Positions 38,266 through 58,535 of a stretch of 59,690 bases of DNA are shown here, in pieces. Made by a program: the position numbers and the translations under genes. The notes under the pieces were generated by a model. The model was not told where the DNA came from. It saw only the letters and a list, made by a program, of their open reading frames with translations, and ran no database searches. This DNA is from an uncultured Bacilli bacterium (GTDB lineage: Bacteria > Bacillota_I > Bacilli_A > RF39 > UBA660). The stretch spans positions 1 through 59,690 of the forward strand of contig CAJFEV010000001.1 in the NCBI GenBank assembly GCA_904374795.1. Reading direction: 5' to 3'. How positions within the stretch are numbered: the first letter of the stretch is position 1; every line of letters starts with the position of its first letter.

Positions 38266-38274
38266 AAACCACTC

Positions 38275-38577: not shown

Positions 38578-38674
38578 CTTCAACCCCCCTTTAAGATAAA
38601 AAATAATCACATAAAATTATTGGTGCATAATTATCACTCTTAAAATTATTTGTATTACACCTTTTTATTCCTTT

Positions 38675-39163: not shown

Positions 39164-39169
39164 ACGAAC

Positions 39170-39532
39170 TTACATATCCATTTCTTTTGAATTGCTAGAA
39201 ATTACCCTAGTATTTTCTTGAACAATTTGCTTTTCGATTTTTTGAATTTCAAAAGGACGAATTTGCAAAGTTTGTTTTCCGTCTTTTTGATATGAATCTA
39301 ATTTCCCCACAACAGTGATTTTATTTCCAACTTGTAAATCTTCTTTCAAAACATTTTCTAAAATATTTCCATCTAAATAAATCGGATAAAAACTTGCTCG
39401 CCCATCACGACTATTTTGAGCAATATTCATATACATAAAATTTTTACCATTTGATTTTTCTTTAACTTCTGACATAGAAGCAATATTTCCTGTAATTTCT
39501 ATACTATTTTTATAGTTGTTTTGTTGCTCCAT
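39170..39532 (-). CDS. Single-stranded DNA-binding (OB-fold) protein
   Basis: NSIEITGNI...VVGKLDSYQKDGKQTLQIRPFEI has the OB-fold SSB pattern. Its position within the transfer operon fits this call. Confidence 0.55.
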   Translation of the reverse strand: MEQQNNYKNSIEITGNIASMSEVKEKSNGKNFMYMNIAQNSRDGRASFYPIYLDGNILENVLKEDLQVGNKITVVGKLDSYQKDGKQTLQIRPFEIQKIEKQIVQENTRVISSNSKEMDM

Positions 39533-39533
39533 A

Positions 39534-42554: not shown

Positions 42555-42596
42555 TATTTCACCTCCTAAAATAAAAAAGCTATAAATCAATAGCTT

Positions 42597-43406: not shown

Positions 43407-43431
43407 GTCTCAAACCTCTTTTCATGATTAT

Positions 43432-43460
43432 ATTGTATAATTTTTCTGAAAGTTTGTCAG
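43432..43460 (-). promoter_or_regulatory. Candidate sigma-A promoter of the transfer operon
   Basis: Minus strand CTGACA-17 nt-TACAAT, about 25 nt upstream of the ATG at 43406. Confidence 0.35.
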
Positions 43461-43500
43461 TATCTTTCTTATACTTTTACATAAAAAAGCATATAACATG

Positions 43501-43971
43501 TTAGCTATATGCTGAAACATTTAAAGCAATTGCCATCTTGACAATGCAACTTGCTTTAATAGTCTTAAATAGATGTCTCGTAGTCTGAATCTTATCAATC
43601 AAATAATTTTCTGATTTTTTTAAATACAACACATCTAAAAAGTATGTAAATTCATCTCTACTTAATGTACTTAATGCCAAGGAGATTTCACTATATAATG
43701 TTTGCATTCTCATTTCCGTATCACACTTTTTAGCAATGTAATTTCCTACCTTATCATTGGAAGATTTTATAAAGCACTCATAACGCACTTCATAATTGCT
43801 AGTAATTCTAGGTTTAGGTATATTTGGATATTGAACTTGTAATGTTATAAATTCATTGATCTTTTTTAAAACTTCTTCGTAACAAATATCCATATCATAT
43901 TTTTGTATTTCCTCCCGCGGTAGTGCAGGATTATCAACAATATTGTCTTCTAACTTATACTCAAATAACAA
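43501..43971 (-). CDS. ArpU-like / sigma-region-4-like transcriptional regulator
   Basis: The C-terminus (LSRDEFTYFLDVLYLKKSENYLIDKIQTTRHLFKTIKASCIVKMAIAL) resembles ArpU-family HTH tails. TTG start 8 nt after TAGGAG. Confidence 0.4.
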   Translation of the reverse strand: MLFEYKLEDNIVDNPALPREEIQKYDMDICYEEVLKKINEFITLQVQYPNIPKPRITSNYEVRYECFIKSSNDKVGNYIAKKCDTEMRMQTLYSEISLALSTLSRDEFTYFLDVLYLKKSENYLIDKIQTTRHLFKTIKASCIVKMAIALNVSAYS

Positions 43972-44435
43972 TGATAAAACTCCTATTACTAAAAAAGAGA
44001 GATAAAGCCCCTAAAGCTTGTTCTCTCTTTCGTTACAAAAACATGACTTAAACAATTATAAGACCTATTACTACAATAATTTCTACCATCAGACTTGATC
44101 ACATTTCTTTTCATTGCTTTACACCACCTAACTATTAATCGTTTCCTAATAAATAAGTAGCGCATAATTTCTCGCTTTCTTGAAATTAGGTTATCTATAC
44201 TAATGAAAATTTTAGTACTTGTCAAGCTTTTTTTTCATTTTTTCACCTCCAAACCCCCATAAAAAAAGCCATAAATCGTAAAATAACAATTTATGACCAA
44301 AAACCAAAACAAGATTGCTCGTTTGCAAACTTATTTCAAGTTTACATTATAATATCACTTAATATGAAAATAACAACAAAAATTCATATTTTTTTGTGCG
44401 ATTTTGTGAAAAAATTGTGCGATTTTGAAATTTGT

Positions 44436-44876
44436 TTATATTATTAGTAATTTTGATAGTTGCACAAAAACTGTATCAATAGTATTTGATTCTTCTAAAA
44501 TTTTATATATTTTATTATACTCCTCATTTGCCTTTTCTTCTGCTTCTTCGCTAGAATAAAATAAATCAGAAAGATTATAAGATATTTTCTTTTCAACGTC
44601 ATAACAATCTATTAATAATGTTGTGTCAAATCGCATTTCAAAAATGTCTGGGTTAATTTTAAAGTCATCCGTAACAATTAAACAGTTTTTTTTTGGATAC
44701 AACTGTTTATATGTAATTAGATTAAATCTGAAATTTTCTAAAGATTTAGTATACTTTCTAACAATTTTTTCTTGGAATAAATGCTTATCATACTTGGTAG
44801 TGCTATTATCATTCGTAGTAATTTCCAGAGGTTCAATATTTAATCTTTTTAAAAAATCTAAATAGTATTTATTCAT
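44436..44876 (-). CDS. Hypothetical protein
   Basis: 146-aa ORF with a GGGAGAAG RBS. No motif recognised. Confidence 0.45.
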   Translation of the reverse strand: MNKYYLDFLKRLNIEPLEITTNDNSTTKYDKHLFQEKIVRKYTKSLENFRFNLITYKQLYPKKNCLIVTDDFKINPDIFEMRFDTTLLIDCYDVEKKISYNLSDLFYSSEEAEEKANEEYNKIYKILEESNTIDTVFVQLSKLLII

Positions 44877-44956
44877 ATTCTCGCTTCTCCCTATCGCTTT
44901 TTATTATACAAACAAGCACTAATAAAAGCAAATATTTTTAAAAGCATATATCATAA

Positions 44957-45086
44957 TTTTTGATGTGTGGGAAAACATAGTAAACTCTTTTAATTTAACG
45001 TTATGGGTTTATGTGTTAAATTAATAGTGAACAACATTAGAAAACCAATGTATTAAAATGGTAAAAGCTTTCCCACACATCAAAAA
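44957..45086. repeat. Perfect 18-bp inverted repeat bracketing a 94-bp segment
   Basis: TTTTTGATGTGTGGGAAA (44957-44974) pairs with TTTCCCACACATCAAAAA (45069-45086). The interior holds a second 9-bp stem, TAATTTAAC...GTTAAATTA. Confidence 0.6.
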
Positions 45087-45258
45087 CAATAAATTTCAAA
45101 TTTTTTTTCTGTAATTATTATATCATGTGTAAGACTAAGTAGTAAATAAATGAAATAAGAACGTTGCTCAAAAAATTGCATAAAATGATTTTTTCTACCC
45201 CAAATATATCTCTCAATGCTTTTTTAAGCAAAAAAACGCACATTTCATACAATTTTTA

Positions 45259-45286
45259 TTGTTCTATATCTTTTTGGTGTTATAAT
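45259..45286 (+). promoter_or_regulatory. Sigma-A promoter with extended -10 for the nucleotidyltransferase gene
   Basis: TTGTTC-16 nt-(TGt)TATAAT, 25 nt upstream of the ATG at 45312. Confidence 0.45.
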
Positions 45287-45311
45287 TTCTTCAAAAGAAA
45301 GGTTTGTTTAT

Positions 45312-46073
45312 ATGGAAAAATTCACAGATATTATTAATAAATTTGTGAATAAAATGGGGTATTTAAAAAATGCTAATTTAGAAGGAATCGTGTGGTATGG
45401 TTCGAGTCAAACTGGATTTGCTAATAGCTGTTCCGATATTGATTTGCATATTGTCTTTTCTGATTTAACAAATGAAGTACGAGGCTCGGATTTTATAGAC
45501 AATTATCGCATTGAATATTTTGAAAAGACACTATCAAGTTTATATCAAAAAGTTGACTATGAATTTAATCATCAGTCAAATGCTATGGTATCTATGTTTG
45601 CCTATGGAACAGTATTGCTAGACAAAAGAGGAAATATAAAAAAATTACAAGAATATATAAAAAGAACATATTCTGCTCCTATGCCTTGTTTAAACGAAGA
45701 AGAAACTAAAGAACAAATTGCAATTATTAATAATTTTTTTGATGACTTAAACTATTATATAGAAACAAACGACTTATATGCCAATCATGTCTTTCACCTA
45801 ACATTAGAAAGAATAAAAGATTTATATTTTGCAATAAATGCCTTGCCTGGTGTTTCTCGAACTAAAGCATTAAAAACTATGCTAAACGATAATTATAGAA
45901 ATGCAACCAAAAAAAAGAATCCTGAACCAGAATTCATCGATTTATACATTCGTTGTTTAAACGAAAATATATCTTTATTACAAAGATTAAACTTATTACA
46001 ATTTTTATATCAAATTACAATTCAAAATATATCTTTTAATAAAAATGTACATAGAATAGTACTGAAAAAGTAA
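45312..46073 (+). CDS. Pol-beta-superfamily nucleotidyltransferase with a C-terminal helical domain (ANT-like architecture)
   Basis: GIVWYGSSQTGFANSCSDIDLHIVF (G-S...D-x-D NTase signature). Its 253 aa match the size of antibiotic nucleotidyltransferases. Substrate unknown. Confidence 0.65.
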   Translation: MEKFTDIINKFVNKMGYLKNANLEGIVWYGSSQTGFANSCSDIDLHIVFSDLTNEVRGSDFIDNYRIEYFEKTLSSLYQKVDYEFNHQSNAMVSMFAYGTVLLDKRGNIKKLQEYIKRTYSAPMPCLNEEETKEQIAIINNFFDDLNYYIETNDLYANHVFHLTLERIKDLYFAINALPGVSRTKALKTMLNDNYRNATKKKNPEPEFIDLYIRCLNENISLLQRLNLLQFLYQITIQNISFNKNVHRIVLKK

Positions 46074-46149
46074 TATTTTTTGTACATTTTCATAGTATCT
46101 TTAATACTGTTTAAAATATTTTTTCAAAATTCATAAGATCTTTATCAAT

Positions 46150-47115
46150 TTATTTTGAATTGAAACTTAATATCTTTTTAATCGTATAATTACAAAGCCA
46201 CGCTAATACCAAACAAATTAATAACAGAATAAATTGATAGAATAAAATACCTATAATATAATTAAATGAAATTAAATTCTGAAAAATTGAAAGTTCATAT
46301 ATCTTATTTTGTAAAAGTGGATGAAATAAATAGATATAAAGAGAATTAGCAGAAATTAAAGTTAAAAATTTATGTTGATGTTTTATTTTAAAGCCTAAAA
46401 TACAATTCATAAAAAGTATGGACATACTAATTAGTAATAAACTATCTATATTGTATAATTCTAAATGATCATTCGTATAGAAAATTATGCCAATTATATA
46501 TAAAATAAAGAATAGAATGCCACTTAATTTAGTAAATTTTATTTGATCGTGAATTTTGTAAAAAAGACTGCCCATTAAATAATAACCAATACTATAAGTT
46601 GGGATTGCTACGCCCCAATAAGTGGAAAACTCAAGAGAAAAAAGTTTTAATAAGGCTGGCATAATTAGTATTACACTTATTAAAAATATATGTTCTTTAG
46701 TTGAAGCATTTTTGGTTATGTAATTTAAAAATGGCATTATGAGATATAAACCAATTAACATATAAATATACCAAAATGGCTCGATTATCGGCGTTGCTAT
46801 AAAGTTTTGTAAAAAAAGAAAATCAATGGTTTTATGTTGTAAAAGATAAATAAGTCCCGATAAAAGAAATAAAGGAATGAATACTTTTAAAATCTTTTTT
46901 AATATATCTTTTCCTTTTAATTCTTTCGTACACATTAAATAGCCTGTGCACATAATAAATATGGGAACTGCTATTCGGCATAAAACAAATTCGATTTTAT
47001 AAAAAGGCAAATAATTTTCATTTATTAAAAGATAAGAACTTGTATGATTAATAATAACTAATATACACGCTATTGATTTTAATAAATCAATATTTTTAAA
47101 ATACTCTTTTTTCAT
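46150..47115 (-). CDS. Acyltransferase family 3 integral membrane protein
   Basis: The N-terminus (NIDLLKSIACILVIINHTS) is followed by about 10 TM segments. AAGGAG RBS before MKKEYF (47115). Confidence 0.7.
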   Translation of the reverse strand: MKKEYFKNIDLLKSIACILVIINHTSSYLLINENYLPFYKIEFVLCRIAVPIFIMCTGYLMCTKELKGKDILKKILKVFIPLFLLSGLIYLLQHKTIDFLFLQNFIATPIIEPFWYIYMLIGLYLIMPFLNYITKNASTKEHIFLISVILIMPALLKLFSLEFSTYWGVAIPTYSIGYYLMGSLFYKIHDQIKFTKLSGILFFILYIIGIIFYTNDHLELYNIDSLLLISMSILFMNCILGFKIKHQHKFLTLISANSLYIYLFHPLLQNKIYELSIFQNLISFNYIIGILFYQFILLLICLVLAWLCNYTIKKILSFNSK

Positions 47116-47288
47116 TTGCACCAGCTCCTTAAGATTCGGAATATAATAATTAAAAGGTAAACCCAAAAAATTCGTATTAATGTTTCAAATCGAAGATATT
47201 TCGTTAATTATTAATAGTGTAACATATAAATAAAATTATTTCAAAAGAGGAAGCATATGTCTTCCCCTATTTGAGATATTATTATTGA

Positions 47289-47978
47289 TTATTCTAAAAA
47301 TGAATAACTTGAATAATTATTTTCTTTAGCATTAAAAGCTTTTTTCGTAGTATTATTATAAGAAAGCATTCCATAATCATTCGCTATAATGGTAAAGTAC
47401 TCTTCACCTTCAGCTTTGTGTAAAAACAATAATCTAGTATCTTCCTCTTCTATAGATTGATCTCCTATACTTTCACTTTTAAAACGAACTTTTGCAGAGC
47501 TTTTTTGAGCTGTCGTTAAATCATTAGCACCAATTTTTTCTGCAAAATCATCATCTCTAGCATTTAAGAGTTGTTGTAAAGAAATAGTTCCACCACTTCT
47601 TTTAGTTAAAATGTCTTCTCCTATAGCAAAATTCCCAGTATTTTTTATAATACTTTGAACATTAAATTTCGAAATAGTAAACGGAACTTCATTTTCATTT
47701 ATTTCTGTTTCAACATCTTCTACGAAATTTGCAATAACAACTAGGTTTGCCATTTCAAATAAATCCTCTGGATTTGAAGTTGGATAGCTATAAGATGCAG
47801 TAACTTCGTACATTATAGAACCATCATCCAAAGTTTCTGATCCGTCTATAAATTCTTGAGTGTTTATTTTATCACCTTCTAATTTTTTTGATTGATAATT
47901 TATTATAATAACACCAACTAATAAAGCTACTACAAGCAATGCAGTGCATCCAATTCCAATTTTTTGTATTCTATTCAT
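47289..47978 (-). CDS. Membrane-anchored extracellular protein, unknown function
   Basis: N-terminal TM segment IGIGCTALLVVALLVGVIII. No catalytic motif. Confidence 0.5.
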   Translation of the reverse strand: MNRIQKIGIGCTALLVVALLVGVIIINYQSKKLEGDKINTQEFIDGSETLDDGSIMYEVTASYSYPTSNPEDLFEMANLVVIANFVEDVETEINENEVPFTISKFNVQSIIKNTGNFAIGEDILTKRSGGTISLQQLLNARDDDFAEKIGANDLTTAQKSSAKVRFKSESIGDQSIEEEDTRLLFLHKAEGEEYFTIIANDYGMLSYNNTTKKAFNAKENNYSSYSFLE

Positions 47979-47995
47979 ATTATAATCACACCTTT

Positions 47996-48619
47996 CTATG
48001 GATATAAAGCATTAAATGCATCCTGATCTACTTGTTGAATTGTATATACATTTCTGCTATCCCAGTTATACATAATACTATTTGGATTTTCTGGATTATG
48101 TCCTAATCCCCAAGCATGGCCAAATTCATGAGCAATGATACCTTGTCGTTGATTAAAGTCAGTATATCCATCAAAAATATCATTATTTATATGAATTTCA
48201 GCAAACAAATAATTTTCCGCAGGAACACCAGTACCAGTTCTATTTGGAACCTCAACCCATCCAACACTAACCGCATTCCCATTTACTCTTTTGTAAGTTT
48301 CGGTCATAGCAGTAAAAGCATAATTTCCATAAAATGCTGCATAAAAATCGACTGCACTATTTGTTTTATTATAAGTTCTAGTATTTGGATATAATTTATT
48401 ATAACCTAAACCAGTATAAACCCAATTGTTAGCAGCAGCGGCTATAGTTCCTGAGTATCCAGGAGCTGACTGGTCTATATAATAATATATACTTTCAATA
48501 TTCCAAGTCAACTTATAATTTCCATAAGCTGGCATAGTTGCAGCTGAAGCTGCTGGGATTACTCCCAAACTACCAATAATTAGCAATAAACCTATTAACC
48601 AATATCTTAATTTTTTCAT
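47996..48619 (-). CDS. Secreted zinc metalloprotease, matrixin-like (metzincin)
   Basis: Signal peptide. HEFGHAWGLGHNPENPNSIMY contains HExxHxxGxxH plus a Met-turn. Confidence 0.8.
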   Translation of the reverse strand: MKKLRYWLIGLLLIIGSLGVIPAASAATMPAYGNYKLTWNIESIYYYIDQSAPGYSGTIAAAANNWVYTGLGYNKLYPNTRTYNKTNSAVDFYAAFYGNYAFTAMTETYKRVNGNAVSVGWVEVPNRTGTGVPAENYLFAEIHINNDIFDGYTDFNQRQGIIAHEFGHAWGLGHNPENPNSIMYNWDSRNVYTIQQVDQDAFNALYP

Positions 48620-48741
48620 TTACATCCTCCTTTTCTAAAAAAATTAAGTTTATTTTACTTCCATATCACCTTTTCCTTTCTCATAATGCAATATCTAATT
48701 CATGACTTAGATATTGTCAAAACTATTTTATATAAAATTTC

Positions 48742-49455
48742 TTAAAGACTTATATCAACACCAGGAGCATTATCATAAACATTTCTAGCAGTTCCTATAA
48801 ATTGAAAGACGTTTCCATATCCCCCAACTCCAATCGTATATTGATTACTAACTACTGAACTTGTATTACTCATAGCATGTTGATAGCTTCCATATATTGT
48901 TCCGCTTTGTGTTGTTGTAAATGATACAGAAACTTGAATATTGGATGTATTAGGTAATTGAAATGAATATCCAAAACCATTATTAAATTTTTTAGGATTA
49001 TTATAGGATTGAGAAAAATTATTTCCCTCTATCCTTAAATTATTAATCGTTAAAAGACTTGGACCATTTAATCTCACTCCCATGACATCATAACTTTTTA
49101 CAAAAGGACTTCCAATCCATGTTGCAACAAGTGTGTTCAAACAGCTACTATTACAAACTTTTGTAATTGAAAGTGTTCTTAAATTACTTGTTACTGAACT
49201 ACCACGAGTTATAGGATAATTTGTATAAGTTTTCTTTTCTATTTCTTGATCAAATAAATCCATATCCTTAATTTGTAAATATTCTTCTTGTGTCAAAGAT
49301 TTTTGATATCCTTCCCAGTATAATTTGCTAAAAAAATCATATTCTTTTTCAGATAAACTAACTCCATTTTCATTAGTAAAATAATTTTCTTTTGCAGATG
49401 CACATGGCGCCAAAAATATACACAATAATAAGCCAAACAAAATTTTTCTTTTCAT
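48742..49455 (-). CDS. Secreted hypothetical protein (beta-rich C-terminal domain)
   Basis: Signal peptide MKRKILFGLLLCIFLAPCASA. No recognised motif. Confidence 0.5.
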   Translation of the reverse strand: MKRKILFGLLLCIFLAPCASAKENYFTNENGVSLSEKEYDFFSKLYWEGYQKSLTQEEYLQIKDMDLFDQEIEKKTYTNYPITRGSSVTSNLRTLSITKVCNSSCLNTLVATWIGSPFVKSYDVMGVRLNGPSLLTINNLRIEGNNFSQSYNNPKKFNNGFGYSFQLPNTSNIQVSVSFTTTQSGTIYGSYQHAMSNTSSVVSNQYTIGVGGYGNVFQFIGTARNVYDNAPGVDISL

Positions 49456-49485
49456 ATAATCCCTCTCTCTTCTACTGATTCAAAC

Positions 49486-49530
49486 TTATCATAAAATCAA
49501 GAAAAAAGGTAGTGCCAATTTGGCACCACC
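49486..49530 (-). terminator. Rho-independent terminator inside the repeat shared with 10685-10729
   Basis: On the minus strand, GGUGGUGCC-AAAUU-GGCACUACC is followed by U6CUUG. It overlaps the last codons of the 49489-50595 ORF. Confidence 0.5.
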
Positions 49531-50595
49531 AGTTTTTTCCAAATATTGCCAAATCGGCACTATACTGATTTTAAATATTTTTCTACATAATTCATTATAT
49601 ATTTTTTCAGCATTTTCACAGTTTCCTTCTATACAATTAACTTGATTGTCAACAACTTCAAAATCAGTCAATGTTTTTAAATTAAAATAAGAAAAAACAT
49701 TCAAATTCAAATTATAAGTATAATTTTCTTCCGTATTATTTACAAAAAACAAACCAGAATTATATGTCAAAAGAAAATCATCAGTTTTTAAAACACAATT
49801 GTCATTTTCATCACATTGAAAAGTTTCTTTAATTTTTATAGGTGTCTCAAATTTTTTCATTTCTTGTTCTTTTCCAATCTCCTTTTCTTCTACATATACA
49901 AAATTATTATTTGAGACTTCTTCAATAAAATTTAGTGTAATCTCTTCGTTACCAATTCTCACAAAAATTTTTTGATTACCACTAATAAAATCATTATATG
50001 AAATAAAACTTTCATACCCATAATTGTCTTGTATAAGAACTTGATATTCTCCATCATAAACTAATCGTCTTTCTTTGTTTGTCTCAATAAAAATTTTAAT
50101 ATTTTCTACTTCTGGAGCAATACTACCTATTTGAAAATAAATTTTTTCTTTAGATAAGACTAATAAACCATTAGTTAGCTCATAAGATGGAGATGAGCCG
50201 GAAAATGTATAGATTTTCATCGTATCATAGTTTTGAAAAAAGTATAATATTATTAGTCCTATAAAACTAATTACTACAAATATAGCGAGTAATATAGCTA
50301 TAAATCGAGCTTTTTTAAATTTTGAATTTTGATTTTGCAAATACTTAAAAAGTGAATTTTGTAATTTTTTTTCATTTTGTTTATTTTTTCTTTCGCAAGC
50401 TGTTAACTCATCTAAAGAAATATCAAAAATTTGACTATAATATATCAAATCATCAAAAGTTGGGCGCCGTTTATTATTTTCAAGACGATTTATCTTCGAA
50501 TGATCCACATGCATTTGCTCTGCTAAATCATATTGAGACATATTTTTACTTAATCTTAAATCCTTTAAAAATGGTCCAATCTTATTATAATCCAT
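49489..50595 (-). CDS. Membrane-bound XRE-family HTH regulator with an extracellular domain
   Basis: The N-terminal HTH_3 (LKDLRLSKNMSQYDLAEQMHVDHSKINRLENNKR) is followed by TM segment FIAILLAIFVVISFIGLIILYFF and a ~230-aa outside domain. Confidence 0.7.
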   Translation of the reverse strand: MDYNKIGPFLKDLRLSKNMSQYDLAEQMHVDHSKINRLENNKRRPTFDDLIYYSQIFDISLDELTACERKNKQNEKKLQNSLFKYLQNQNSKFKKARFIAILLAIFVVISFIGLIILYFFQNYDTMKIYTFSGSSPSYELTNGLLVLSKEKIYFQIGSIAPEVENIKIFIETNKERRLVYDGEYQVLIQDNYGYESFISYNDFISGNQKIFVRIGNEEITLNFIEEVSNNNFVYVEEKEIGKEQEMKKFETPIKIKETFQCDENDNCVLKTDDFLLTYNSGLFFVNNTEENYTYNLNLNVFSYFNLKTLTDFEVVDNQVNCIEGNCENAEKIYNELCRKIFKISIVPIWQYLEKTGGAKLALPFFLIL

Positions 50596-50608
50596 ATAAC
50601 AGTACACC

Positions 50609-50685
50609 TCAGCAAAAGTATATCATGGACAAACCGAAACTTAAAGATTTAAAAGCCATAATCTACTTTTGATTATGACCATTTT
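50609..50685. repeat. Copy A of a ~77-bp terminator-promoter cassette
   Basis: About 95% identical to 51202-51279. On the minus strand it reads CATAATC-AAAAGTA-GATTATG hairpin, a U-rich tail, then TGATATACT (extended -10). Confidence 0.6.
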
Positions 50686-50814
50686 TAATTTTATTTTGAA
50701 TTTCTGGATATATTTTTAAAATTACTTCTTACGGTAAGAAATTTGTTTTTAATGATTAGTTAAAACTTCAAAAAAAGTTTCGTTTTCATTTAATACTTTT
50801 CTTGAACACAATCA

Positions 50815-51141
50815 TCATTCTTTTATTTCACTACCTATTTCTTTATATTTTGCTAAACATTCTTCAACAGCGTCTTTTCTAATCAATGTAAAATAAATTT
50901 TATCTTCGTCATCTTCCGTATCTAAAATATTTTTGATGGCATCCAATTTATTCTCTAACCATTCCATAAAATGTTTTTGAAGTTTTTCTTTATCTTCAAG
51001 TTTTTTCTGTAATTCTTTATTTTCTTGTTTCATTATATCTATATATTTTTGTATTGTTAACCAACTTTCATACGCGTCTGTATTATCTAATTTTTTGGTT
51101 AATTTGCATGATAATTCTTCCAACATTTTTTCATTCATCAT
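50815..51141 (-). CDS. Small coiled-coil hypothetical protein
   Basis: 108-aa K/E-rich ORF with a GGTGAGG RBS. It is flanked by the duplicated cassette. Confidence 0.45.
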   Translation of the reverse strand: MMNEKMLEELSCKLTKKLDNTDAYESWLTIQKYIDIMKQENKELQKKLEDKEKLQKHFMEWLENKLDAIKNILDTEDDEDKIYFTLIRKDAVEECLAKYKEIGSEIKE

Positions 51142-51201
51142 TCTACCTCACCTAATCTTAAATTTTTTAAAAATGAATTGTAATCTACAAAATAATACGC
51201 A

Positions 51202-51279
51202 TCAGTAAAAGTATATCATGAACAAACTGAAACTTAAAGATTTAAAAAGCCATAATCTACTTTTGATTATGACTATTTT
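51202..51279. repeat. Copy B of the terminator-promoter cassette (begins at the HelD-like gene stop codon)
   Basis: See copy A. It overlaps the stop codon at 51273-51275. Confidence 0.6.
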
Positions 51280-53411
51280 CGATATAAACTTCTAGCTAAA
51301 GGCTTAGTAATTGGTTCTTGATATAAAATTTCTAAATCGTGTAAAGCACGAGTCATTGAGACATATAAGTTTTTTAAGTCAGTATTATTATCAGATGAAT
51401 ATGTTTTCTCACTTACGTTTGCAATAATAACTGCATCAAATTCTAATCCCTTTGAACATTGACTACTTATAGAACAAATACCACCTTCGTATACACTATT
51501 ATTCATATTTATATACGATATATTTACTCCTAGTTGTTGTAATTTAACTGCAATTTGATTAGCCTCTTCTTCAGTACGACTTATTACAGCAATTGATGAA
51601 AAATTCTGTGCAATTAAACCTTCTATTTTATTTTTTAATAATTGAATATCGTTTGGATTATACAATGTATACCTTACATCTTCACCATGTCTTATAACAG
51701 GCTCAGAAACTTTCATATTTAAATAATCTAAAATTTGATTAGCCTGTTCCATAATCTCAATAGTAGTACGATAACTTTTTAATAAATAGTCAACATTGCA
51801 TTTATTATTAAAACATGCTTTTTCTACTTCTTCCCAATTATCAATACTTCTATAGTCATAAATAGATTGAGCTAAATCCCCGAAAATACTAAATGTACAA
51901 CTTGGCAAAGCTTTTTTTAGAGCATAGAAATTGAATACTCCATAATCTTGTGCTTCATCGATGACTGCATGACGGAATTTTTTATATTCTTGAGATCCAT
52001 GTAATAATGTATGTAAATAAACAATACCTGGTAAATCTTCAAAAGTAATTCCTTTTTTAATTGGTATAGTAATTTTTTTTAAGCTATCATTCACTTCTCT
52101 ATCTGCAAATTGAGATAGTTTCGTTAAAAAATTATTATATATTGTTGATGTTTTTTTGCTTTTAATTGAAAAATGTTTTCTTAAGGATGCCACACATCCA
52201 CTTTCTATTTCTTTCTTTAAAGCTTGATATTCCTTTTGATATTTTTCTTTTGTAATATTTCCAGCATCCATTTTTTCCTGATATTGTTGATTTACTGATG
52301 AAACCAATTTAGAAGAATTATTCTTAATATAATTTGACAATAACAATACGCATCTTTCAATTTTCATTTCTATATTATCATATATTTTATCTTGAATTTC
52401 TTGATATGTTTTTAAAATTGCCTCTTTAGGTAATATTTTAATATTTTTGATTGTAAAGTCTTTACCAGGAACAACTTCATATTCATCTAAATATTTTACA
52501 TATTTGTCTATTAGTTCTTTAAAATCCATAGACATTTTGAAATGATATGGATTTACACCATTTATAACATCAGGATTATATCCTATATCATCAATACTAA
52601 TTTCCTCACCAATAAATTCTTGTGCAAATTCGGGATATGTAAGCTGCGGAACACTAGTTACATCTAATTCTGGCAGAACAGACGAGATGTAATTAATAAA
52701 GAATTTATTTGGTCCTATTACCATATATTGGTCAGATTTAATTGTTTCCCTAAAGTTATAAGCCAAATAAGCAATTCTATGTAAAGCCACAGTAGTTTTT
52801 CCTGAACCAGCTACTCCTTGACATATTGTATTGTTAGTAATAGGTTCTCTTATAATTGTATTTTGTTCATTTTGTATAGAACTAACTATATTTTTCAAAC
52901 GATTATCTGCATTTACTCCTAAATATGGTTTTAAAATTTCATCATTAGAAACCGTGTCTACATCTCGATAGGATAACAACTCACCATTTTCAATTTCATA
53001 TTGACGTTTTAATTCCATAGTTCCACTTATTGTTCCCTTAGGTGCTTCATAACTTGCTGGTCCTATATTGCTATCATAATATAAAGATGCAATAGGAGCA
53101 CGCCAATCAACTGTAATTATATTACCATCACTGTCTACTACTCCTACTTTTCCAATGTAGCAAACTTCTTTTCTATGTTCATCGTCTGAAGTAAAATCAA
53201 TACGAGCAAAATATGGTTTTTGAAATCCATTTTCTAACACCTTTAATTTATTTTCATATTGGTCCATTAAATTATTATAAACAATAGGATCCATAACATT
53301 TCGTCTTTTTAATGAATTAATCATCAATTCTACATCTTCATATACATGATGTAGTTCAGATATAACAGATTGTGTTTTTTCTTTTTCTAATTCAAATTCG
53401 TGTTTTTCCAT
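51273..53411 (-). CDS. HelD-like (helicase IV / UvrD-superfamily) RNA-polymerase-associated ATPase
   Basis: N-terminal coiled-coil, then KPYFARIDF...YIGKVGV...VDWRAPIASLYY (HelD N-domain signature). Walker A GVAGSGKTTVALHR and Walker B VIDEAQD. The ATG at 53411 follows AGGGGGA. Confidence 0.8.
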   Translation of the reverse strand: MEKHEFELEKEKTQSVISELHHVYEDVELMINSLKRRNVMDPIVYNNLMDQYENKLKVLENGFQKPYFARIDFTSDDEHRKEVCYIGKVGVVDSDGNIITVDWRAPIASLYYDSNIGPASYEAPKGTISGTMELKRQYEIENGELLSYRDVDTVSNDEILKPYLGVNADNRLKNIVSSIQNEQNTIIREPITNNTICQGVAGSGKTTVALHRIAYLAYNFRETIKSDQYMVIGPNKFFINYISSVLPELDVTSVPQLTYPEFAQEFIGEEISIDDIGYNPDVINGVNPYHFKMSMDFKELIDKYVKYLDEYEVVPGKDFTIKNIKILPKEAILKTYQEIQDKIYDNIEMKIERCVLLLSNYIKNNSSKLVSSVNQQYQEKMDAGNITKEKYQKEYQALKKEIESGCVASLRKHFSIKSKKTSTIYNNFLTKLSQFADREVNDSLKKITIPIKKGITFEDLPGIVYLHTLLHGSQEYKKFRHAVIDEAQDYGVFNFYALKKALPSCTFSIFGDLAQSIYDYRSIDNWEEVEKACFNNKCNVDYLLKSYRTTIEIMEQANQILDYLNMKVSEPVIRHGEDVRYTLYNPNDIQLLKNKIEGLIAQNFSSIAVISRTEEEANQIAVKLQQLGVNISYINMNNSVYEGGICSISSQCSKGLEFDAVIIANVSEKTYSSDNNTDLKNLYVSMTRALHDLEILYQEPITKPLARSLYRK

Positions 53412-53433
53412 TACACATCCCCCTTTCAAAATT

Positions 53434-53871
53434 TTATTTTTTATAATTCAATTTTTTTAAAGCATACCAAGCAAATGGTGATAACTGTTCTTCATTTAGT
53501 TCTTCAATTGGCAACCAAACAGCTCCATCAGAATCAAGACCATCAGCATCAATTTTTAAATTTTCTTCCTTAATATCAACAAGATACAAAATTCCAATAT
53601 GATGTAAATCTTCTGTTACATTTTCTTCCATAAGCCATTTAATATTAGTAGAAGTTGCATCTAATAATTCTTCTTTAATAACAGTTCCTTCTACTTCTTC
53701 CATCATTTCTCTATGTAGAGCTTCGATAGGTGTTTCGGTATGTTCGATACCTCCACCTGGAAGATCATATTTCCCCTTATAGCCTCCTCTAGCCTTTTTT
53801 ACAAGAGCTATTTTACCATCTCGTATTAAAATGCCATAAGCTCCTACATGTGTTTTAACAATAGTTTTCAT
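53434..53871 (-). CDS. NUDIX hydrolase
   Basis: Near-canonical Nudix box GGGIEHTETPIEALHREMMEEVEG. Confidence 0.85.
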   Translation of the reverse strand: MKTIVKTHVGAYGILIRDGKIALVKKARGGYKGKYDLPGGGIEHTETPIEALHREMMEEVEGTVIKEELLDATSTNIKWLMEENVTEDLHHIGILYLVDIKEENLKIDADGLDSDGAVWLPIEELNEEQLSPFAWYALKKLNYKK

Positions 53872-53921
53872 ATATTTCCCTCTCTTTCATTTCCTTACAA
53901 ATTTTACCATACGATCTTATA

Positions 53922-54818
53922 TTATTCAAATAATACTTGCGTTAAATTCAAATCATTTAATAAATTATACCACTTTTCCCAGCCATCCTTTTTTTGGCGA
54001 GGATCACTTAAATCAATTTTGCCCATTTGATATAAAGCAATTTTTTCTAAAATAACTTTTAAAATGTAAAACTCCCACATACATTTTAGATTTTGAATAC
54101 TTAAATTCATTTGATTTTCATATTCTTTTAGTAATTCCTTAGCTAACTGAATATCAAAGTCATTATAATGAAAACATAATTTTATAACAGAACTAATAAC
54201 TTCATACTCTTGTGTCGCAACAATAGCTTCATCAAAATCAATTAAATAAAGTGTATGATTTTTCCATAACATGTTTTGCGAAGATAAATCACCATGTACT
54301 AAATAAAAATTTAAGTTTGAAAAATCTAATGATTCATATTTAGTAATAAGTTCATATATTGTTTTTTTGTTTATTTTATATGTAGCTATTTCTTTTAAAT
54401 ACCGTACATAATAATTTACTTTAGCAAAAATATTATCATTTTGATAGTCCTTAATAGACACTTTCTTATCTAATAAACTAACTGTTTTAACAAGCAAACA
54501 AATATCATTAATTTTAAGCTTTTTTTTATGGTATCCATCAATAAATTCATATAAATAAAATAATCTATTATTAATTTTTTGTTTAGTGATCTCAATAGGA
54601 ACATTAATATTCTGTTTTAAGCAGTGAGCTAGTAAATCTTTTTTACATCTTTTATTATATTTTCCCACATATTCTTTTAAAAGGTAATTATTATCACTCG
54701 TAATAACTTTATAAACTTTATTTGTAATACCATACTTCATTCTCTTTAATGCAATAACATTTGAAATATTGGTATTTTCAAAAAATTTTTGAATATCTCT
54801 ATCTGTTTCTAAATTCAT
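53922..54818 (-). CDS. APH/choline-kinase-fold phosphotransferase
   Basis: VHGDLSSQNMLW (HGDxxxxN catalytic loop) and LIDFDEA (DFD metal-binding motif). Confidence 0.75.
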   Translation of the reverse strand: MNLETDRDIQKFFENTNISNVIALKRMKYGITNKVYKVITSDNNYLLKEYVGKYNKRCKKDLLAHCLKQNINVPIEITKQKINNRLFYLYEFIDGYHKKKLKINDICLLVKTVSLLDKKVSIKDYQNDNIFAKVNYYVRYLKEIATYKINKKTIYELITKYESLDFSNLNFYLVHGDLSSQNMLWKNHTLYLIDFDEAIVATQEYEVISSVIKLCFHYNDFDIQLAKELLKEYENQMNLSIQNLKCMWEFYILKVILEKIALYQMGKIDLSDPRQKKDGWEKWYNLLNDLNLTQVLFE

Positions 54819-55980
54819 CTTGAGCCTCTTTATATACTTCTATCATTTTAGTTACTATTCTCTCATTTGAAAACACATCATGAATTATTTTATAACATTT
54901 TTCAGCAATTTCAGATTTTTCGGGATTGTTATACAGTTGAATAATTTTATGAGCCAATTCCTCGATATTATCATGTTTAAAAAATATTTCTGGACATTGT
55001 TTTTGCATTAATTCAGAAAAACCAGTGTTATCGCTTATAAGTATAGGTAATCTAGTACTTATTTCTTCTAATGCTACATAAGGTAAATTATCAAACTGCG
55101 ATGGAACAATACCAATACAACTTTTGTTCATATAATCATTCAGTTGCTCATGGGGCATTTGATAAAAGAATTTTAAATGTGCATGATATTTTGACTTAAC
55201 TATACTTTTAATATATTCAATAGTAGAAATTGCTCGATTATTTCTAAAAGTATCTTTCCCAATAAACCAAAAATTTAAATGTTTGGTAGTTTCATTTTCA
55301 AGAATTATATTAATAGCTTCTGCTAAAACTAGTACGCCTTTTCTTTCTTCTATACTACCACAATACAAAACATTATTACTTTGATGAAAAGGCTCTTTTA
55401 AATAAAAATTATTAAAATCAGCTAAATTTGGAACTACTTCTACATTTGTTAATTTAATTTGATGTTGGGTAATAATTTTATTAATAAGCAACTGAGAACA
55501 TGAAATAACTTTTTCAGCATTTTCTATGCAATATTTTTCCCACTCTAACACTGCATTATTAACTTCGCTTGATAATCCACTTTTGTTATATTCTTGCCAT
55601 ACACACAACGGAGTATGCAATTTTACAACAACTGGAATTTTTCTATTTTGTTTCTTTAGATAAAATATTGTTTCTGCACCCCAATCTGGCGTTTCAATTA
55701 TGTCTATTGATTCTTCTTTTTCCAAATCCTCAATAGTAAAACATACTTTTTTTCTATAATCAATATAATCATCTAAAGTATTTGCATTTAATGGCCTAAA
55801 TATTCGAATAATATGAACTCCGTTTTCCACGGTACTGCTATCTTTTTCCAAAGATCTAGCAATAACATATACAGTATGACCAATCATGGCCATATTCTCA
55901 GCTAAACGTTTTTGATAAGTTGCTATACCTCCAAAATTTGTTTCTTCTGGATATTCTTCATGAACATAACAAATTTTCAT
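54799..55980 (-). CDS. GT4-family (GT-B, retaining) glycosyltransferase
   Basis: N-terminal FGGIATYQKRLAE and C-terminal PSQFDNLPYVALEEISTRLPILISDNTG (E-x7-E region). It overlaps the downstream kinase gene by 20 nt. Confidence 0.8.
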   Translation of the reverse strand: MKICYVHEEYPEETNFGGIATYQKRLAENMAMIGHTVYVIARSLEKDSSTVENGVHIIRIFRPLNANTLDDYIDYRKKVCFTIEDLEKEESIDIIETPDWGAETIFYLKKQNRKIPVVVKLHTPLCVWQEYNKSGLSSEVNNAVLEWEKYCIENAEKVISCSQLLINKIITQHQIKLTNVEVVPNLADFNNFYLKEPFHQSNNVLYCGSIEERKGVLVLAEAINIILENETTKHLNFWFIGKDTFRNNRAISTIEYIKSIVKSKYHAHLKFFYQMPHEQLNDYMNKSCIGIVPSQFDNLPYVALEEISTRLPILISDNTGFSELMQKQCPEIFFKHDNIEELAHKIIQLYNNPEKSEIAEKCYKIIHDVFSNERIVTKMIEVYKEAQDEFRNR

Positions 55981-56582
55981 TATTTTACTCGCTTTCTTAC
56001 ATTAGGCTCAAAGCCAATTGCTTCCTCAGCTACTCTATATGTTTCTTCTTTATTACTTACATCTGTATATATAGTTGCTAACGAAAATTGAGATACTTCG
56101 TTAAAATACTTTTCATGATCTTCCAAAGCACTTTCTACACGGTAACGTATATCTGAAGCATTATGATTTCTACTTGAATTCACTATGCGTTCTCTAATTC
56201 CTTTTTCAATATCTTGAAAAGTTAAAACGACTAACCGAACTGGTATTTCTAAATGTTTTAATTGCAATATATCTTTATATGACGAATTTATTAACAAAGT
56301 ATCTGCATTCTCAAACGCATTAAAACAGTCGTTTTTCAAAACTCCATATCCGCGAATGCCATCACTTGAAGCAATTAAGAATTGTTGATTGTTTACTAAT
56401 TTCAAAAACTCCAAATATTCAATGTAACGGTAGAAGCCAGGTTTATCATCACGCCTAGCTTCTCTTGTCGTTACATGTCGCGGTACAATAATGTCATGAT
56501 TTAAAATCAAATTGTCCGTCAAAGTCGTCTTGCCACTACCTGATGGTCCCATAATACTCACTATTACTTTATCCTCTTTCAA
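55980..56582 (-). CDS. Guanylate-kinase-like P-loop kinase
   Basis: IMGPSGSGKTTL followed by HVTTREARRDDKPGFYRY (GMP-kinase-type TTR..R motif). I place the start at the TTG 4-5 nt after GGGGTGA, because the track's upstream TTG lies inside the predicted promoter. Confidence 0.65.
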   Translation of the reverse strand: MKEDKVIVSIMGPSGSGKTTLTDNLILNHDIIVPRHVTTREARRDDKPGFYRYIEYLEFLKLVNNQQFLIASSDGIRGYGVLKNDCFNAFENADTLLINSSYKDILQLKHLEIPVRLVVLTFQDIEKGIRERIVNSSRNHNASDIRYRVESALEDHEKYFNEVSQFSLATIYTDVSNKEETYRVAEEAIGFEPNVRKRVK

Positions 56583-56604
56583 ACTATCACCCCACACAGC
56601 GACT

Positions 56605-56633
56605 AGTATAAATGCAAAAGTATGTTTAGTCAA
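56605..56633 (-). promoter_or_regulatory. Near-consensus sigma-A promoter of the 5-gene cargo operon
   Basis: Minus strand TTGACT-17 nt-TATACT. Confidence 0.45.
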
Positions 56634-57018
56634 CAAAAAATATCGTATTTAGTAGCATTTTTGTGTGTAAAAACATTTTTTCATTTTGTTCTCTTTCAGA
56701 TTTGTAAAATTAATTTCATTCAATCCTAAGAATGATCGTATAATTTTTTCTGTTATAATATTTGTTTAAAACTAAAATACTTACATCTTTCAATAATCTT
56801 ATTTATTGTTTTGGATAATTTAGTAAAATCCAAAAAGTTTTATAGTCATTTTATTCATACTTTTATGATAATTGACCATAATATAAATAATCTATTTGAA
56901 TTAAGTATTCCATCAAAAAATTTCTATGTTTTTCACGATAATTTCTGCCAAAATATCGTATATGGTTGCAAATGAACTGATGGACAATTTTAAATGAGAA
57001 AATGTTTTCGGTGATTGT

Positions 57019-57471
57019 ATGAACTGTGATAATAGACTATTTTTTATTAGGGAACATCTAGATTATACTCAGGTGCAAATGGCAAAAAAGTTAGGAGTAA
57101 GTCGTGCTTATTATTCTTTATGTGAGACTAATACTAAATTTATGACTTTAAATAGACTAAATGATTTCTGTAACATTTTTCAAGTTGATATAGATTATGT
57201 GTATTATTTAACTAATAAGAAAACCAACAACACTAAAAAAATCAATAAAATCAATCCTAAAACCGTCGGAAATAATTTATGTACAATATTAAAGGACAAC
57301 AATGTTACTCAAAAAGAAATAGCACAATTTTTAAATACAACTCAATCTACAATTTCTAGTTATTGTAACGGACACACAATAATTTTAACATCATTTGCTG
57401 TTCAATTAGCCAAAAAATATTCCTTTTCACTTGACTGGTTAATAGGTAGATCCGACACAAAAAAATTATAA
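57019..57471 (+). CDS. Transcriptional regulator with two XRE-type HTH domains
   Basis: IREHLDYTQVQMAKKLGVSRAYYSLCE and LKDNNVTQKEIAQFLNTTQSTISSYCNG. Confidence 0.65.
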   Translation: MNCDNRLFFIREHLDYTQVQMAKKLGVSRAYYSLCETNTKFMTLNRLNDFCNIFQVDIDYVYYLTNKKTNNTKKINKINPKTVGNNLCTILKDNNVTQKEIAQFLNTTQSTISSYCNGHTIILTSFAVQLAKKYSFSLDWLIGRSDTKKL

Positions 57472-57479
57472 TTCTAAAC

Positions 57480-57722
57480 TTATTTATACATTGAAAAATA
57501 GCGATCAACAAGTTCTTCATTTTTTCTTTTTTCTCTTTGACTTTTAGAAAATACTTTAGCTTGTATTATACAATCCAAAACCATTTGTAATGATACCCCT
57601 TCAATAAAGATATCGCCTTTTTTTGCTTGTAAGAAAAAGTATTTATCTTGAAATGTGATTTTTAACTTTTCGTCATTAACTAGTCTAAGTTCTGAAATAT
57701 CTTTATCTTTTAATATTTCCAC
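57480..57722 (-). CDS. Small hypothetical protein, divergent from the XRE regulator
   Basis: 80-aa ORF with a GTG start after AGGAAGGAAAG. Confidence 0.4.
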   Translation of the reverse strand: MEILKDKDISELRLVNDEKLKITFQDKYFFLQAKKGDIFIEGVSLQMVLDCIIQAKVFSKSQREKRKNEELVDRYFSMYK

Positions 57723-58016
57723 TATTCTTTCCTTCCTATTTTACTTTTTTCTCATTTTGAGTATCATCTAAAGTTACCATTAGTGTTCCCTTTGAATTTT
57801 TTATAATAATTGAAGTTTCTGGATGATCCGTTGAACTAATTGTAAGAACTTCATTCAAATCAAGAGAAATATGCGTTTCTTTTGCTTTTTTAGTATCTGC
57901 CATTTTAATCACCTCCTATCCTTACTATCTATAATACCACAAATATAGTCAGGTGCATTTATTAAATGTAGTACATTTAACACATCTTCATTGGATAATT
58001 GTACTAGGTGGTTAAA

Positions 58017-58256
58017 ATGAAAATCAATAAAAGTGATAATAAATATATTTATGTCATTGCTGGAAAAAATATTAAAAGAATTCGAGAAGAAAAAGGATTA
58101 ACTCAGGTTCAACTAGCTGATTTAATAAAATATAATGAGGGGACAATTTCAAATATAGAGAATGACAGTTTTCAAACATTTAGTTTAGAATTTTTATATA
58201 TTATTTCAAAAAAGTTAAAAGTACCTATGAGCGAATTTTTTAAAGAAATAGACTAG
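58017..58256 (+). CDS. XRE-family HTH regulator (candidate element repressor)
   Basis: IKRIREEKGLTQVQLADLIKYNEGTISNIEND. The ATG at 58017 lies 5 nt after TAGGTGG. Confidence 0.7.
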   Translation: MKINKSDNKYIYVIAGKNIKRIREEKGLTQVQLADLIKYNEGTISNIENDSFQTFSLEFLYIISKKLKVPMSEFFKEID

Positions 58257-58305
58257 AATAACTTTACTTTAATTTATATAAAGAATTATTAATATAAAAA
58301 TTAAG

Positions 58306-58339
58306 GACCCTATTTAAATTATAGGCTCCTTTTTTTCTT
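58306..58339 (+). terminator. Rho-independent terminator
   Basis: AGGACCCTAT-ttaaatt-ATAGGCTCCT (10-bp stem, one mismatch) followed by T7. Confidence 0.6.
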
Positions 58340-58497
58340 CAATAATAATTACTTCCAATATATTTATTTAGTGAGTGTTTTATACTATTAATGAAGTAAC
58401 TAACTCAACTTTGTCCACCAATACAACTTTATTACCGTAATTCTTTCTTTCATTAACATTAAAACTAGATTTATTAAGTATTAAAGTTGCAAAAGTG

Positions 58498-58535
58498 GAC
58501 TGCATATAGGTGCACCAACTTCACTAGGATACATG
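58498..58535. repeat. Right attachment junction (element arm 58498-58520, TC core 58521-58522, host arm)
   Basis: GACTGCATATAGGTGCACCAACT is the inverted partner of 15706-15728. The host arm continues as ACTAGGATACAT, which reads MYPS on the minus strand. Confidence 0.7.

Follow-up and report, generated by a model that had tools for sequence, protein, structure and literature searches.

The 59,690-nucleotide stretch analysed here (the window; contig CAJFEV010000001.1) comes from an uncultured human-gut species of the Bacilli and carries on its minus strand a five-gene operon. The operon encodes a guanylate kinase (GK)-like kinase, a family 4 glycosyltransferase (GT4), an APH-fold kinase, a NUDIX hydrolase and an ATPase of the RNA polymerase (RNAP)-associated HelD family. 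We found that these genes form a conserved, horizontally mobile system, hereafter the module, whose linkage is not due to chance, and that in the window the operon is cargo of an integrative and conjugative element (ICE). We tentatively propose that the module shields transcription from a nucleotide- or glycoside-type poison directed at RNAP. The first-pass annotation of this stretch, made from the sequence alone, had not recognised the combination as a described system, and no published description of the gene set was found in the HelD literature or in full-text searches. Coordinates of the features are collected in Table 1, and loci used for comparison are designated by L numbers.

The linkage of the genes recurs well beyond the window. 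In contigs of low-GC Firmicutes we found eight distinct architectures in which orthologous GK-like, GT4 and APH-fold proteins (27–61% identical to those of the window) are encoded together, and in each of them a pyrophosphohydrolase is present. Six of the eight have HelD next to the other genes, either upstream or downstream, with scores of 402–440 bits against the HelD_BACSU model. In four architectures (L019–L022) GT4 and APH are fused into one polypeptide. The hydrolase slot shows non-orthologous displacement, being filled by a MutT-like NUDIX protein, an IDI/YfcD-like NUDIX protein or a MazG-like protein, which are three unrelated lineages. In the assembly collection the identical GT4 is listed for 102 blocks, and wherever its surroundings were examined the other four genes accompanied it. 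The gene order is kept in L007, L010 and L014 though the APH-fold kinase there is only 46–49% identical. The survey of co-occurrence had been set beforehand as the test by which the idea of a coherent system could be refuted; it found the genes together down to 27–49% identity, rearranged and fused. Chance adjacency is therefore unlikely, given the conserved linkage, the fusion and the joint insertion described below.

The architectures differ in order and in accessory parts. L017 and L018 have GK-GT4-APH followed by the MazG-like protein in place of NUDIX, with no HelD nearby. L019, L020 and L021 combine a GT4::APH fusion of 666–679 amino acids with GK and the IDI/YfcD-like NUDIX protein; L019 has HelD upstream, whereas L020 and L021 have it downstream and, in addition, have NUDIX fused to an ATP-grasp domain. 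L022 has NUDIX-GK-GT4::APH and no HelD nearby; a neighbouring helicase considered as HelD turned out to be PcrA. L015 has the order LysR-HelD-GK-GT4-APH-NUDIX-radical SAM-NUDIX fusion, with helD upstream. A second strong promoter (TTGACA-17-TGnTAATAT) lies between helD and the GK gene of L015 (7848–8000), together with a 19-codon open reading frame (ORF; 7912–7971) whose stop codon falls within the loop of an 11-bp hairpin with a U-run behind it (z = -2.8). This arrangement looks like a leader-peptide attenuator, and it has no counterpart in the window.

The most direct evidence that HelD belongs to the module is an insertion in L020. Its 6,740 bp hold exactly GT4::APH, GK, NUDIX::ATP-grasp and HelD, and it is flanked by a 127-nt direct repeat of the 3' end of spoIVA (5734–5860 and 12474–12600). 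No recombinase is encoded inside it.

L014 is an element of another type, with a CHAP hydrolase and helix-turn-helix (HTH) genes upstream of the module and a sigma70_r4 protein, a pemK RNA motif and a tyrosine integrase downstream. Its layout resembles that of Tn916, with the module in the place that tet(M) presumably has there. The pemK motif (Rfam RF02913, 45 bits) is at 14720–14800 of L014, in a Tn916-like regulatory region. In both the L014 element and the 42.8-kb ICE of the window, which has a serine recombinase and is of an unrelated type, the module holds an accessory position. Chromosomal copies adjoin spoIVA, spoVG and yabP/yabQ.

The module is rare and confined to low-GC (24–28%) Firmicute contigs. 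An exhaustive HMMER search gave 49 representatives of the kinase family at E ≤ 1e-30 among 1.84 billion sequences, fusions included, and the module kinase was found in only 2 of 185,579 species genomes. Word-index homology searches undercount this family badly and missed the known GT4::APH fusions. In the phage and plasmid collections there was no APH homologue except one weak homoserine-kinase match, and the only guanylate kinases were generic phage enzymes. One member of the GK-like kinase cluster is filed at NCBI as 'Corallococcus sp. CAG:1435' (Myxococcota). This label is a legacy mislabel of a gut Firmicute, because the G+C content is 27% and SpoVA sporulation genes stand next to the near-identical block in L002 and L005.

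That the operon is ICE cargo, as the first-pass annotation had proposed, is established by an empty site. The ICE-free locus L025 matches the window from 59690 to 58521 and then from 15711 to 5256 at >99.6% identity, with an 8-bp overlap; because this match flanks it, the insertion is defined as 42,809 bp. The element has a recombinase, a relaxase, a type IV secretion system (T4SS) ATPase, defined ends and an empty site, and the whole operon is within its bounds, about 1.9 kb away from the recombinase-distal end. Chromosomal priA, rimM and trmD adjoin the ICE genes in the window. The insertion splits a 568-amino acid gene of unknown function into a 476-amino acid part and a 60-amino acid remnant. 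Metagenomes hold ICE-bearing sites (L023, L024, L026 and L028) as well as ICE-free sites (L025, L027, L029 and L030). Since the operon helD comes with the ICE and is missing from the ICE-free sister sites, it is an accessory gene and no resident housekeeping copy, which answers the concern that it might simply be the housekeeping helD of the strain.

Several further observations concern the element. An 8-bp sequence is common to its junctions (15704–15711 and 58521–58528) and the empty site. The serine-recombinase ORF runs ~37 nt past the junction into the target gene, so that chromosomal DNA completes the C-terminus of the recombinase. The ICE also encodes a 2,130-amino acid SNF2/ResIII helicase protein (18653–25045) and a 1,018-amino acid adhesin with seven SpaA domains and a thioester domain (39534–42590). 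A location of the operon outside the ICE was at one point suspected, since L002 and L005 carry the same ~13-kb block without conjugation genes, and was overturned for the lineage of the window by the empty-site comparison. In L002 and L005 the block sits between VanY/PBP5/LytR and SpoVAC/SpoVAD. The operon and HTH genes are 97% identical to those loci (window 51150–58032), whereas the adjoining block, with an HTH gene, a 237-amino acid gene, an M10 peptidase, an acyltransferase_3 and an NTase, is only 87.5% identical (45223–50685). This contrast suggests either that the operon segment was recently exchanged by recombination or that the block in those contigs is what is left of an ICE in another species.

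All five ORFs were found where the first-pass annotation had placed them, tightly packed, and profile scores confirmed the families it had named. They are co-directional, in the order GK-like kinase, GT4, APH-fold kinase, NUDIX and HelD from the promoter outward. The first three spacings are, as reported there, a 1-nt overlap, a 20-nt overlap and a 50-nt gap. The fourth, given as 4 nt, has that length only if a TTG start is used; from the ATG at 53411, which has a ribosome-binding site (GAAAGGGGGA) and fits the N-termini of homologues as well as public gene calls (712 amino acids), the gap between NUDIX and HelD is 22 nt. The longest-ORF call of the GK gene takes in the operon promoter. Judged from the N-termini of homologues, the gene probably starts at TTG 56582 and encodes 200 amino acids. 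Public gene calls for this kinase span 116 to 231 amino acids, reflecting the ambiguity of the start codon.

The promoter named in the first-pass annotation, TTGACT-17-TATACT, was located upstream of the GK gene. The window has a G+C content of 27–28%, and in such AT-rich DNA promoter-like matches occur at chance density (56 found, 54 expected). The operon promoter is nevertheless very probably real, because a near-consensus sigma-A promoter is similarly placed in six diverged variants (L010, L014, L015, L017 and L019 among them), ending 23–32 nt before the first start codon. The terminator overlaps the helD stop codon, and no minus-strand terminator was found inside the operon. The divergent gene for a 150-amino acid double-HTH protein, a candidate regulator, is also upstream of the operon in L001–L006 and L013, and similar double-HTH genes are near the module in L014 and L015.

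The HelD protein of the operon belongs to class I, here taken to require a score at or above the HelD_BACSU equivalog cutoff, full-length similarity to Bacillus subtilis HelD, a DWR[A/S]P Trp-cage and the ATPase motifs of superfamily 1. Its best relative in the PDB is B. subtilis HelD (6WVK_H of 6WVK; 284 bits over residues 19–698), and it has DWRAP at residue 102, the Walker A sequence GVAGSGKT at 199, VIDEAQ at 483 and TRA at 687. Judged by alignment, the arm that enters the secondary channel is ~40 residues shorter than that of B. subtilis (~65 residues before PYFARIDF, against ~104). The tip of the arm is variable and non-acidic in all six module-linked HelDs, so that none has the long acidic-tip arm. 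In B. subtilis the acidic tip (D56/D57/E60) is needed for protection from rifampicin (PMC12802891). Larsen et al. described 'small' HelD variants in Firmicutes and left open whether they have a separate role; the module-linked HelDs appear to fit this group. The protein is not a HelR, as motor_HelR and motor_HelR_2 of NCBIfam gave 140–158 bits against cutoffs of 750–1100.

The four enzymes have intact catalytic motifs. The GK-like kinase scores 47 bits against TIGR03263, far from the Gmk equivalog cutoff of 160. Its AlphaFold2 model (pLDDT 90) matches guanylate kinases in the closed state in Foldseek (TM ~0.78, 17–23% identity), and in an alignment of 30 sequences the P-loop, HxTTRxxRxDD, FYRY, SYKDI and the lid Arg residues are invariant. 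The positions that we take to read guanine (Ser34 and Glu69 of the yeast enzyme) are invariant His and Ser in the GK-like kinase. On this assumed residue mapping, the kinase is predicted to phosphorylate, probably, a phosphomonoester other than GMP. In the glycosyltransferase, D297 and E305 of the C-terminal acidic (E/D)x7E motif are invariant. Its nearest PDB relatives by profile are sucrose-phosphate synthase (88.9 bits), then BshA, PglA, GlgA, GlgM and MshA, and most of these neighbours act on small soluble, often phosphorylated acceptors. A lead from the Pfam family 'GT4-conflict' was rejected, since the module enzyme scores higher on general GT4 models; the paper behind that family assigns GT4 an effector role within STAND, AP-GTPase and TPR-GreA/B-C-PIN proteins, a different architecture.

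In the APH-fold kinase, K48, H175-G-D177, N182 and D194-F-D-E197 are intact and are invariant in nine diverged sequences. Its AlphaFold2 model (pLDDT 91.7) resembles small-molecule hydroxyl kinases (Foldseek TM 0.6–0.7, 10–18% identity), namely homoserine kinase II, amicoumacin kinase, APH(9) acting on spectinomycin, YtaA, the N-acetylhexosamine 1-kinase NahK and the choline kinase LicA; by sequence profile APH(9) ranks first. It is the fastest-diverging component, as the identities between the window and L014 are 49% for APH, 58% for GT4, 61% for GK, 75% for NUDIX and 76% for HelD. The Nudix box of the hydrolase, GGIEHTETPIEALHREMMEE at residue 40, is intact (consensus Gx5Ex7REUxEExGU). None of the five proteins has a membrane segment (maximum Kyte-Doolittle mean over 19 residues ≤1.11), and all are predicted to be cytosolic. 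No transporter, flippase, polymerase or priming transferase is encoded in the eight architectures.

Table 1. Features of the window and the basis of their assignment.
Feature	Coordinates	Strand	Basis
Operon (promoter, five genes and terminator)	56633 to 51248	-	
Sigma-A-type promoter TTGACT-17-TATACT	56605..56633	-	10/12 match
Guanylate-kinase-fold P-loop kinase, ~200 amino acids	55980..56582	-	Pfam Guanylate_kin 26.1 bits (cutoff 25.2)
GT4 (GT-B) glycosyltransferase, predicted cytosolic	54799..55980	-	Pfam Glyco_trans_1_4, Glycos_transf_1 and Glyco_transf_4 at 61-63 bits
APH/ELK-fold small-molecule hydroxyl kinase	53922..54818	-	Pfam APH 27.9 bits (cutoff 23.2)
MutT-like NUDIX pyrophosphohydrolase	53434..53871	-	Pfam NUDIX 57.3 bits
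Class I HelD, 'small' isoform, 712 amino acids	51273..53411	-	NCBIfam HelD_BACSU 422.1 bits (cutoff 419)
Intrinsic terminator	51248..51274	-	10-bp stem, then T-run
Double-HTH (Xre-type) protein, divergent, candidate regulator	57019..57471	+	Two HTH_3 domains
ICE, serine-recombinase type, 42,809 bp	15712..58520		Empty site L025, junction sequences, imperfect terminal inverted repeats
Serine recombinase	15674-17482		In ICE
MobL relaxase	30743-32104		In ICE
VirB4-like ATPase	34069-36528		In ICE

What does this set of proteins do? Both class II HelR and the class I HelD of B. subtilis protect RNAP from rifamycins in experiments, and helD and helR are co-regulated with drug-modifying transferases (PMC12802891, PMC10719064). 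Because of these published links, and because the module is cargo on two ICE types, protection of transcription is the best frame for it, and it is possible that the poison warded off is a nucleotide- or glycoside-phosphate-like molecule, since the module has nucleotide-type enzymes. This may imply the following division of labour. The four enzymes would form a four-step cytosolic small-molecule pathway coupled to the short-armed class I HelD. As an ATPase of the kind that enters RNAP and releases the stalled enzyme, HelD would clear polymerases on which the poison has already acted. Cleavage by the hydrolase would remove the activated di- or triphosphate form of the poison, GT4 and the APH-fold kinase would cap the compound by glycosylation and phosphorylation, so that it could neither be re-activated nor bind, and the GK-like kinase would process the monophosphate intermediate. 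APH would act next to GT4, since the two are often one polypeptide. The substrate, the order of the steps and their direction, detoxification rather than synthesis, are our proposal, and we infer that HelD serves the same problem as the enzymes.

Several observations are in line with a protective role. The variety in the hydrolase slot (MutT-like, IDI/YfcD-like or MazG-like) points to pyrophosphate cleavage of a nucleotide-like compound. Antibiotic kinases are among the closest structural and profile neighbours of the APH model, and the fast divergence of this kinase is what would be expected of a substrate-recognition part under changing selection. The GK-like kinase has a true guanylate-kinase fold with invariant phosphate-binding residues. 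The cytosolic nature of all five proteins and the lack of an exporter in every architecture agree with protection too, as do the conserved linkage, the joint insertion in L020 and the accessory positions described above. Similar cargo is known from Tn916-family tet(M) and other target-protection genes, in which, as in the module, a factor that frees a blocked essential machine (the ribosome or RNAP) travels on an ICE; tet(M) acts alone, whereas the module core always has its four enzymes and HelD is dispensable in two lineages.

Other points weigh against protection. A nucleoside monophosphate (NMP) kinase has no obvious role in detoxification. Glycosylation of drugs is usually carried out by GT1 and not GT4 enzymes. 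The lineage-specific tailoring parts (ATP-grasp::NUDIX, radical SAM and extra NUDIX copies) are more like diversifying biosynthesis than a resistance cassette, several copies occupy ordinary chromosomal sites of spore-formers, and two architectures (L017/L018 and L022) are those without HelD nearby. The short non-acidic arm of HelD is unlike the arm of the B. subtilis protein, whose acidic tip rifampicin protection needs. Rifampicin-type convergent promoters are absent (see below), and no riboswitch or leader RNA pointing to a ligand was found, including no riboswitch or attenuator before the window operon.

The strongest alternative, though rather unlikely, is that the same enzymes run in the opposite direction, making a glycosylated, phosphorylated nucleotide from cellular nucleotides, while HelD keeps the RNAP of the host working. 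Starting from an NMP released by the pyrophosphatase, GT4 and APH would modify the molecule, and the GK-like kinase, accepting no other NMP than the modified one, would re-phosphorylate it; the product would hit the RNA polymerase of phages or competitors, or tune that of the host. The strength of this idea is that every enzyme has a role in the order, as in the synthesis of hydroxymethyl-dC by phage T4, and that the GK-like kinase has invariant phosphate-binding residues but apparently altered positions for reading guanine. The fusion of GT4 and APH, the closeness of GT4 to enzymes glycosylating phosphorylated metabolites and the tailoring enzymes that differ by lineage (ATP-grasp, radical SAM, extra NUDIX) also agree with it. 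However, the core has no base-modifying or scaffold-building enzyme, a toxic product would be hazardous to make from a promoter that is strong and apparently constitutive, and as no architecture has an exporter, the product would have to act inside the cell. In the T4 pathway a dCTPase (gp56), a dNMP kinase (gp1) and alpha- and beta-glucosyltransferases cooperate, so that the likeness to the module would lie in a nucleoside triphosphate (NTP) pyrophosphatase, a dedicated NMP kinase and a GT-B glycosyltransferase. It is a likeness in activities only: the module lacks a base-modifying enzyme, has a cellular or ICE carrier and is linked to RNAP and not to DNA replication.

Synthesis of such a compound has a precedent in Firmicutes. 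Thuringiensin, the beta-exotoxin of Bacillus thuringiensis, is an adenosine-glucose-phosphate compound that competes with ATP at RNAP (PMC4147579). Its plasmid-borne thu cluster, with a T4SS-like system on the same plasmid, comprises 11 genes; these include a glycosyltransferase, a P-loop kinase, a nonribosomal peptide synthetase-like carrier and sugar-acid enzymes, and separate efflux genes, berAB, have been proposed for immunity (PMC4147579). A nucleoside-sugar-phosphate aimed at RNAP, made with a glycosyltransferase and a P-loop kinase, would be the common point, but unlike the module the thu cluster has no HelD, NUDIX or APH. Viperin with CMPK2, and the prokaryotic viperins, offer a further analogy and only that: a nucleotide kinase is paired with the maker of an RNAP chain terminator that acts intracellularly with no exporter, whereas the module core has no viperin. 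The radical SAM protein of L015, tried as a viperin, was rejected, because PADLOC does not recognise it. In its most specific form, which we consider doubtful, the module by itself would make a glycosylated, phosphorylated nucleotide analogue poisoning the transcription of phages, or of competitors after lysis, and its short-armed HelD would confer immunity. Such a strategy, akin to those of viperin and thuringiensin but including its own RNAP-rescue partner, would be passed among gut Firmicutes by ICEs.

The first-pass annotation had also raised a defence or anti-defence role acting through nucleotide metabolism and RNAP rescue. Such a role is possible. What counts against it, and against the synthesis reading, is the lack of a match to viperin or to any known defence model: two scans with PADLOC-DB v2 returned only generic UvrD/GajB-type and NUDIX (PDC-S07) matches, and nothing for GT4, APH, the fusions, radical SAM or ATP-grasp. 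A distant APH-fold relative is encoded in a different cluster, L012 (the context of P0006, whose kinase is 28% identical), together with ThiF, an HD/TGS (SpoT-like) protein, an archaeal-type S-adenosylmethionine synthase, a radical SAM protein, a peptidase S51 and an SLFN-like helicase. This is possibly another nucleotide-centred conflict system.

An island specific for rifamycins, in which HelD displaces or excludes the drug and GT4 and APH modify its ansa hydroxyls in the manner of HelR with Rgt and Rph, is improbable. Glycosylation and phosphorylation are known group-transfer routes, and carriage by an ICE in a human-gut organism could fit exposure to rifaximin. In B. subtilis, class I HelD increases tolerance to rifampicin and is induced together with Pps, a homologue of RPH (PMC12802891). 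Actinomycete helR has the RAE element in common with rgt and rox, and in Mycobacterium abscessus rifampicin induces the mRNAs of helR and arr more than any others (PMC10719064). The actinobacterial resistome (HelR with Rgt, Rph, Arr, Rox and RAE) and the pair of HelD and Pps thus resemble the module in linking a HelD-family ATPase to group-transfer enzymes, and target protection to chemical modification. The module differs in being one operon on mobile elements, in its class I short-arm HelD without a PCh-loop and in its obligatory NMP-kinase-fold enzyme and NTP pyrophosphatase. Its glycosyltransferase is a GT4 and not a GT1 like Rgt, and its kinase has the APH/ELK fold and not the three-domain architecture of RPH, which resembles phosphoenolpyruvate synthase. 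The HelR models gave scores far below their cutoffs, the arm of HelD lacks the length and acidic tip of the B. subtilis arm, and rifamycin chemistry offers no role for the GK-like kinase or the NUDIX/MazG slot.

Nor does the module have the RAE or the rifampicin-sensing dual promoter of the B. subtilis type. With the latter defined as convergent sense and antisense promoters 45–100 bp apart, each scoring at least 10, none of 11 upstream regions of the module had such a pair, against 3.7% of random windows. In the window a weaker antisense promoter match (56530–56558) falls in the P-loop codons and is at chance level. Of the proposal in the first-pass annotation that the operon is a resistance island against RNAP-targeting antibiotics, the general frame therefore stands as the best available, and the rifamycin-specific form, with neither Rgt or RPH homologues nor convergent promoters, does not.

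A role in sporulation or dormancy is very improbable. In B. subtilis cotSA, which encodes a GT4, is adjacent to cotS, and by analogy the GT4 and kinase could modify a spore or cell component, HelD could serve RNAP storage and the ICE copy could be a hitch-hiker. YtaA, of the CotS family, is among the top structural neighbours of the APH-fold kinase, TIGR02906 gives a weak match, and chromosomal copies stand beside sporulation genes. But the promoters are of the sigma-A type and not of the mother-cell type, the L020 copy next to spoIVA is an insertion, and the module is also found on ICEs, with its nucleotide enzymes left unexplained. Conversion of a surface glycopolymer or serotype, which the first-pass annotation had proposed, and mere adjacency of unrelated genes are likewise very improbable and largely excluded: a GT4 and sugar-type kinases could in principle modify a wall polymer, and an acyltransferase_3 gene lies 4 kb away, but the five proteins lack membrane segments, flippase, polymerase, priming transferase and export genes are absent from every architecture, the nearest relatives of GT4 mostly act on small soluble metabolites, and the conserved linkage, the fusion and the joint insertion speak against chance adjacency.

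The surroundings of the operon show some further features. Downstream of it (49489–50607) an HTH_3 protein with one strong transmembrane segment (residues ~103–121) is encoded, a membrane-anchored Xre-type regulator whose orthologue lies 3' of the operon in L001–L006. A direct repeat of ~100 nt (50584–50685 and 51177–51279; 85–95% identity, 593–594 nt apart) brackets an ORF of 108 amino acids (50815–51141) just downstream of helD, and each copy of the repeat contains the terminator hairpin and a promoter-like stretch. L002, L005 and L006 have a single copy without the ORF, so that the ORF and one repeat copy represent an indel.

In conclusion, recognition of HelD-family proteins as resistance factors that protect RNAP is recent, and many Firmicutes have additional HelD variants of the 'small' kind. 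The module joins one such small HelD to a constant group of nucleotide- and sugar-modifying enzymes, and the whole travels on conjugative elements in the human gut. Neither the folds nor the concept of target protection plus modification is new; what is new is the make-up of the set, its obligatory nucleotide enzymes, its fused forms and its mobility on ICEs. The question of function is testable with one 5.4-kb operon. If protection of transcription is true, the module would be a transmissible resistance determinant of new composition, which standard resistance-gene screens would probably miss. If instead an RNAP-directed nucleotide is made, it would be a new type of chemical weapon or defence, and the module would provide the first specific function for the 'small' HelD paralogues.

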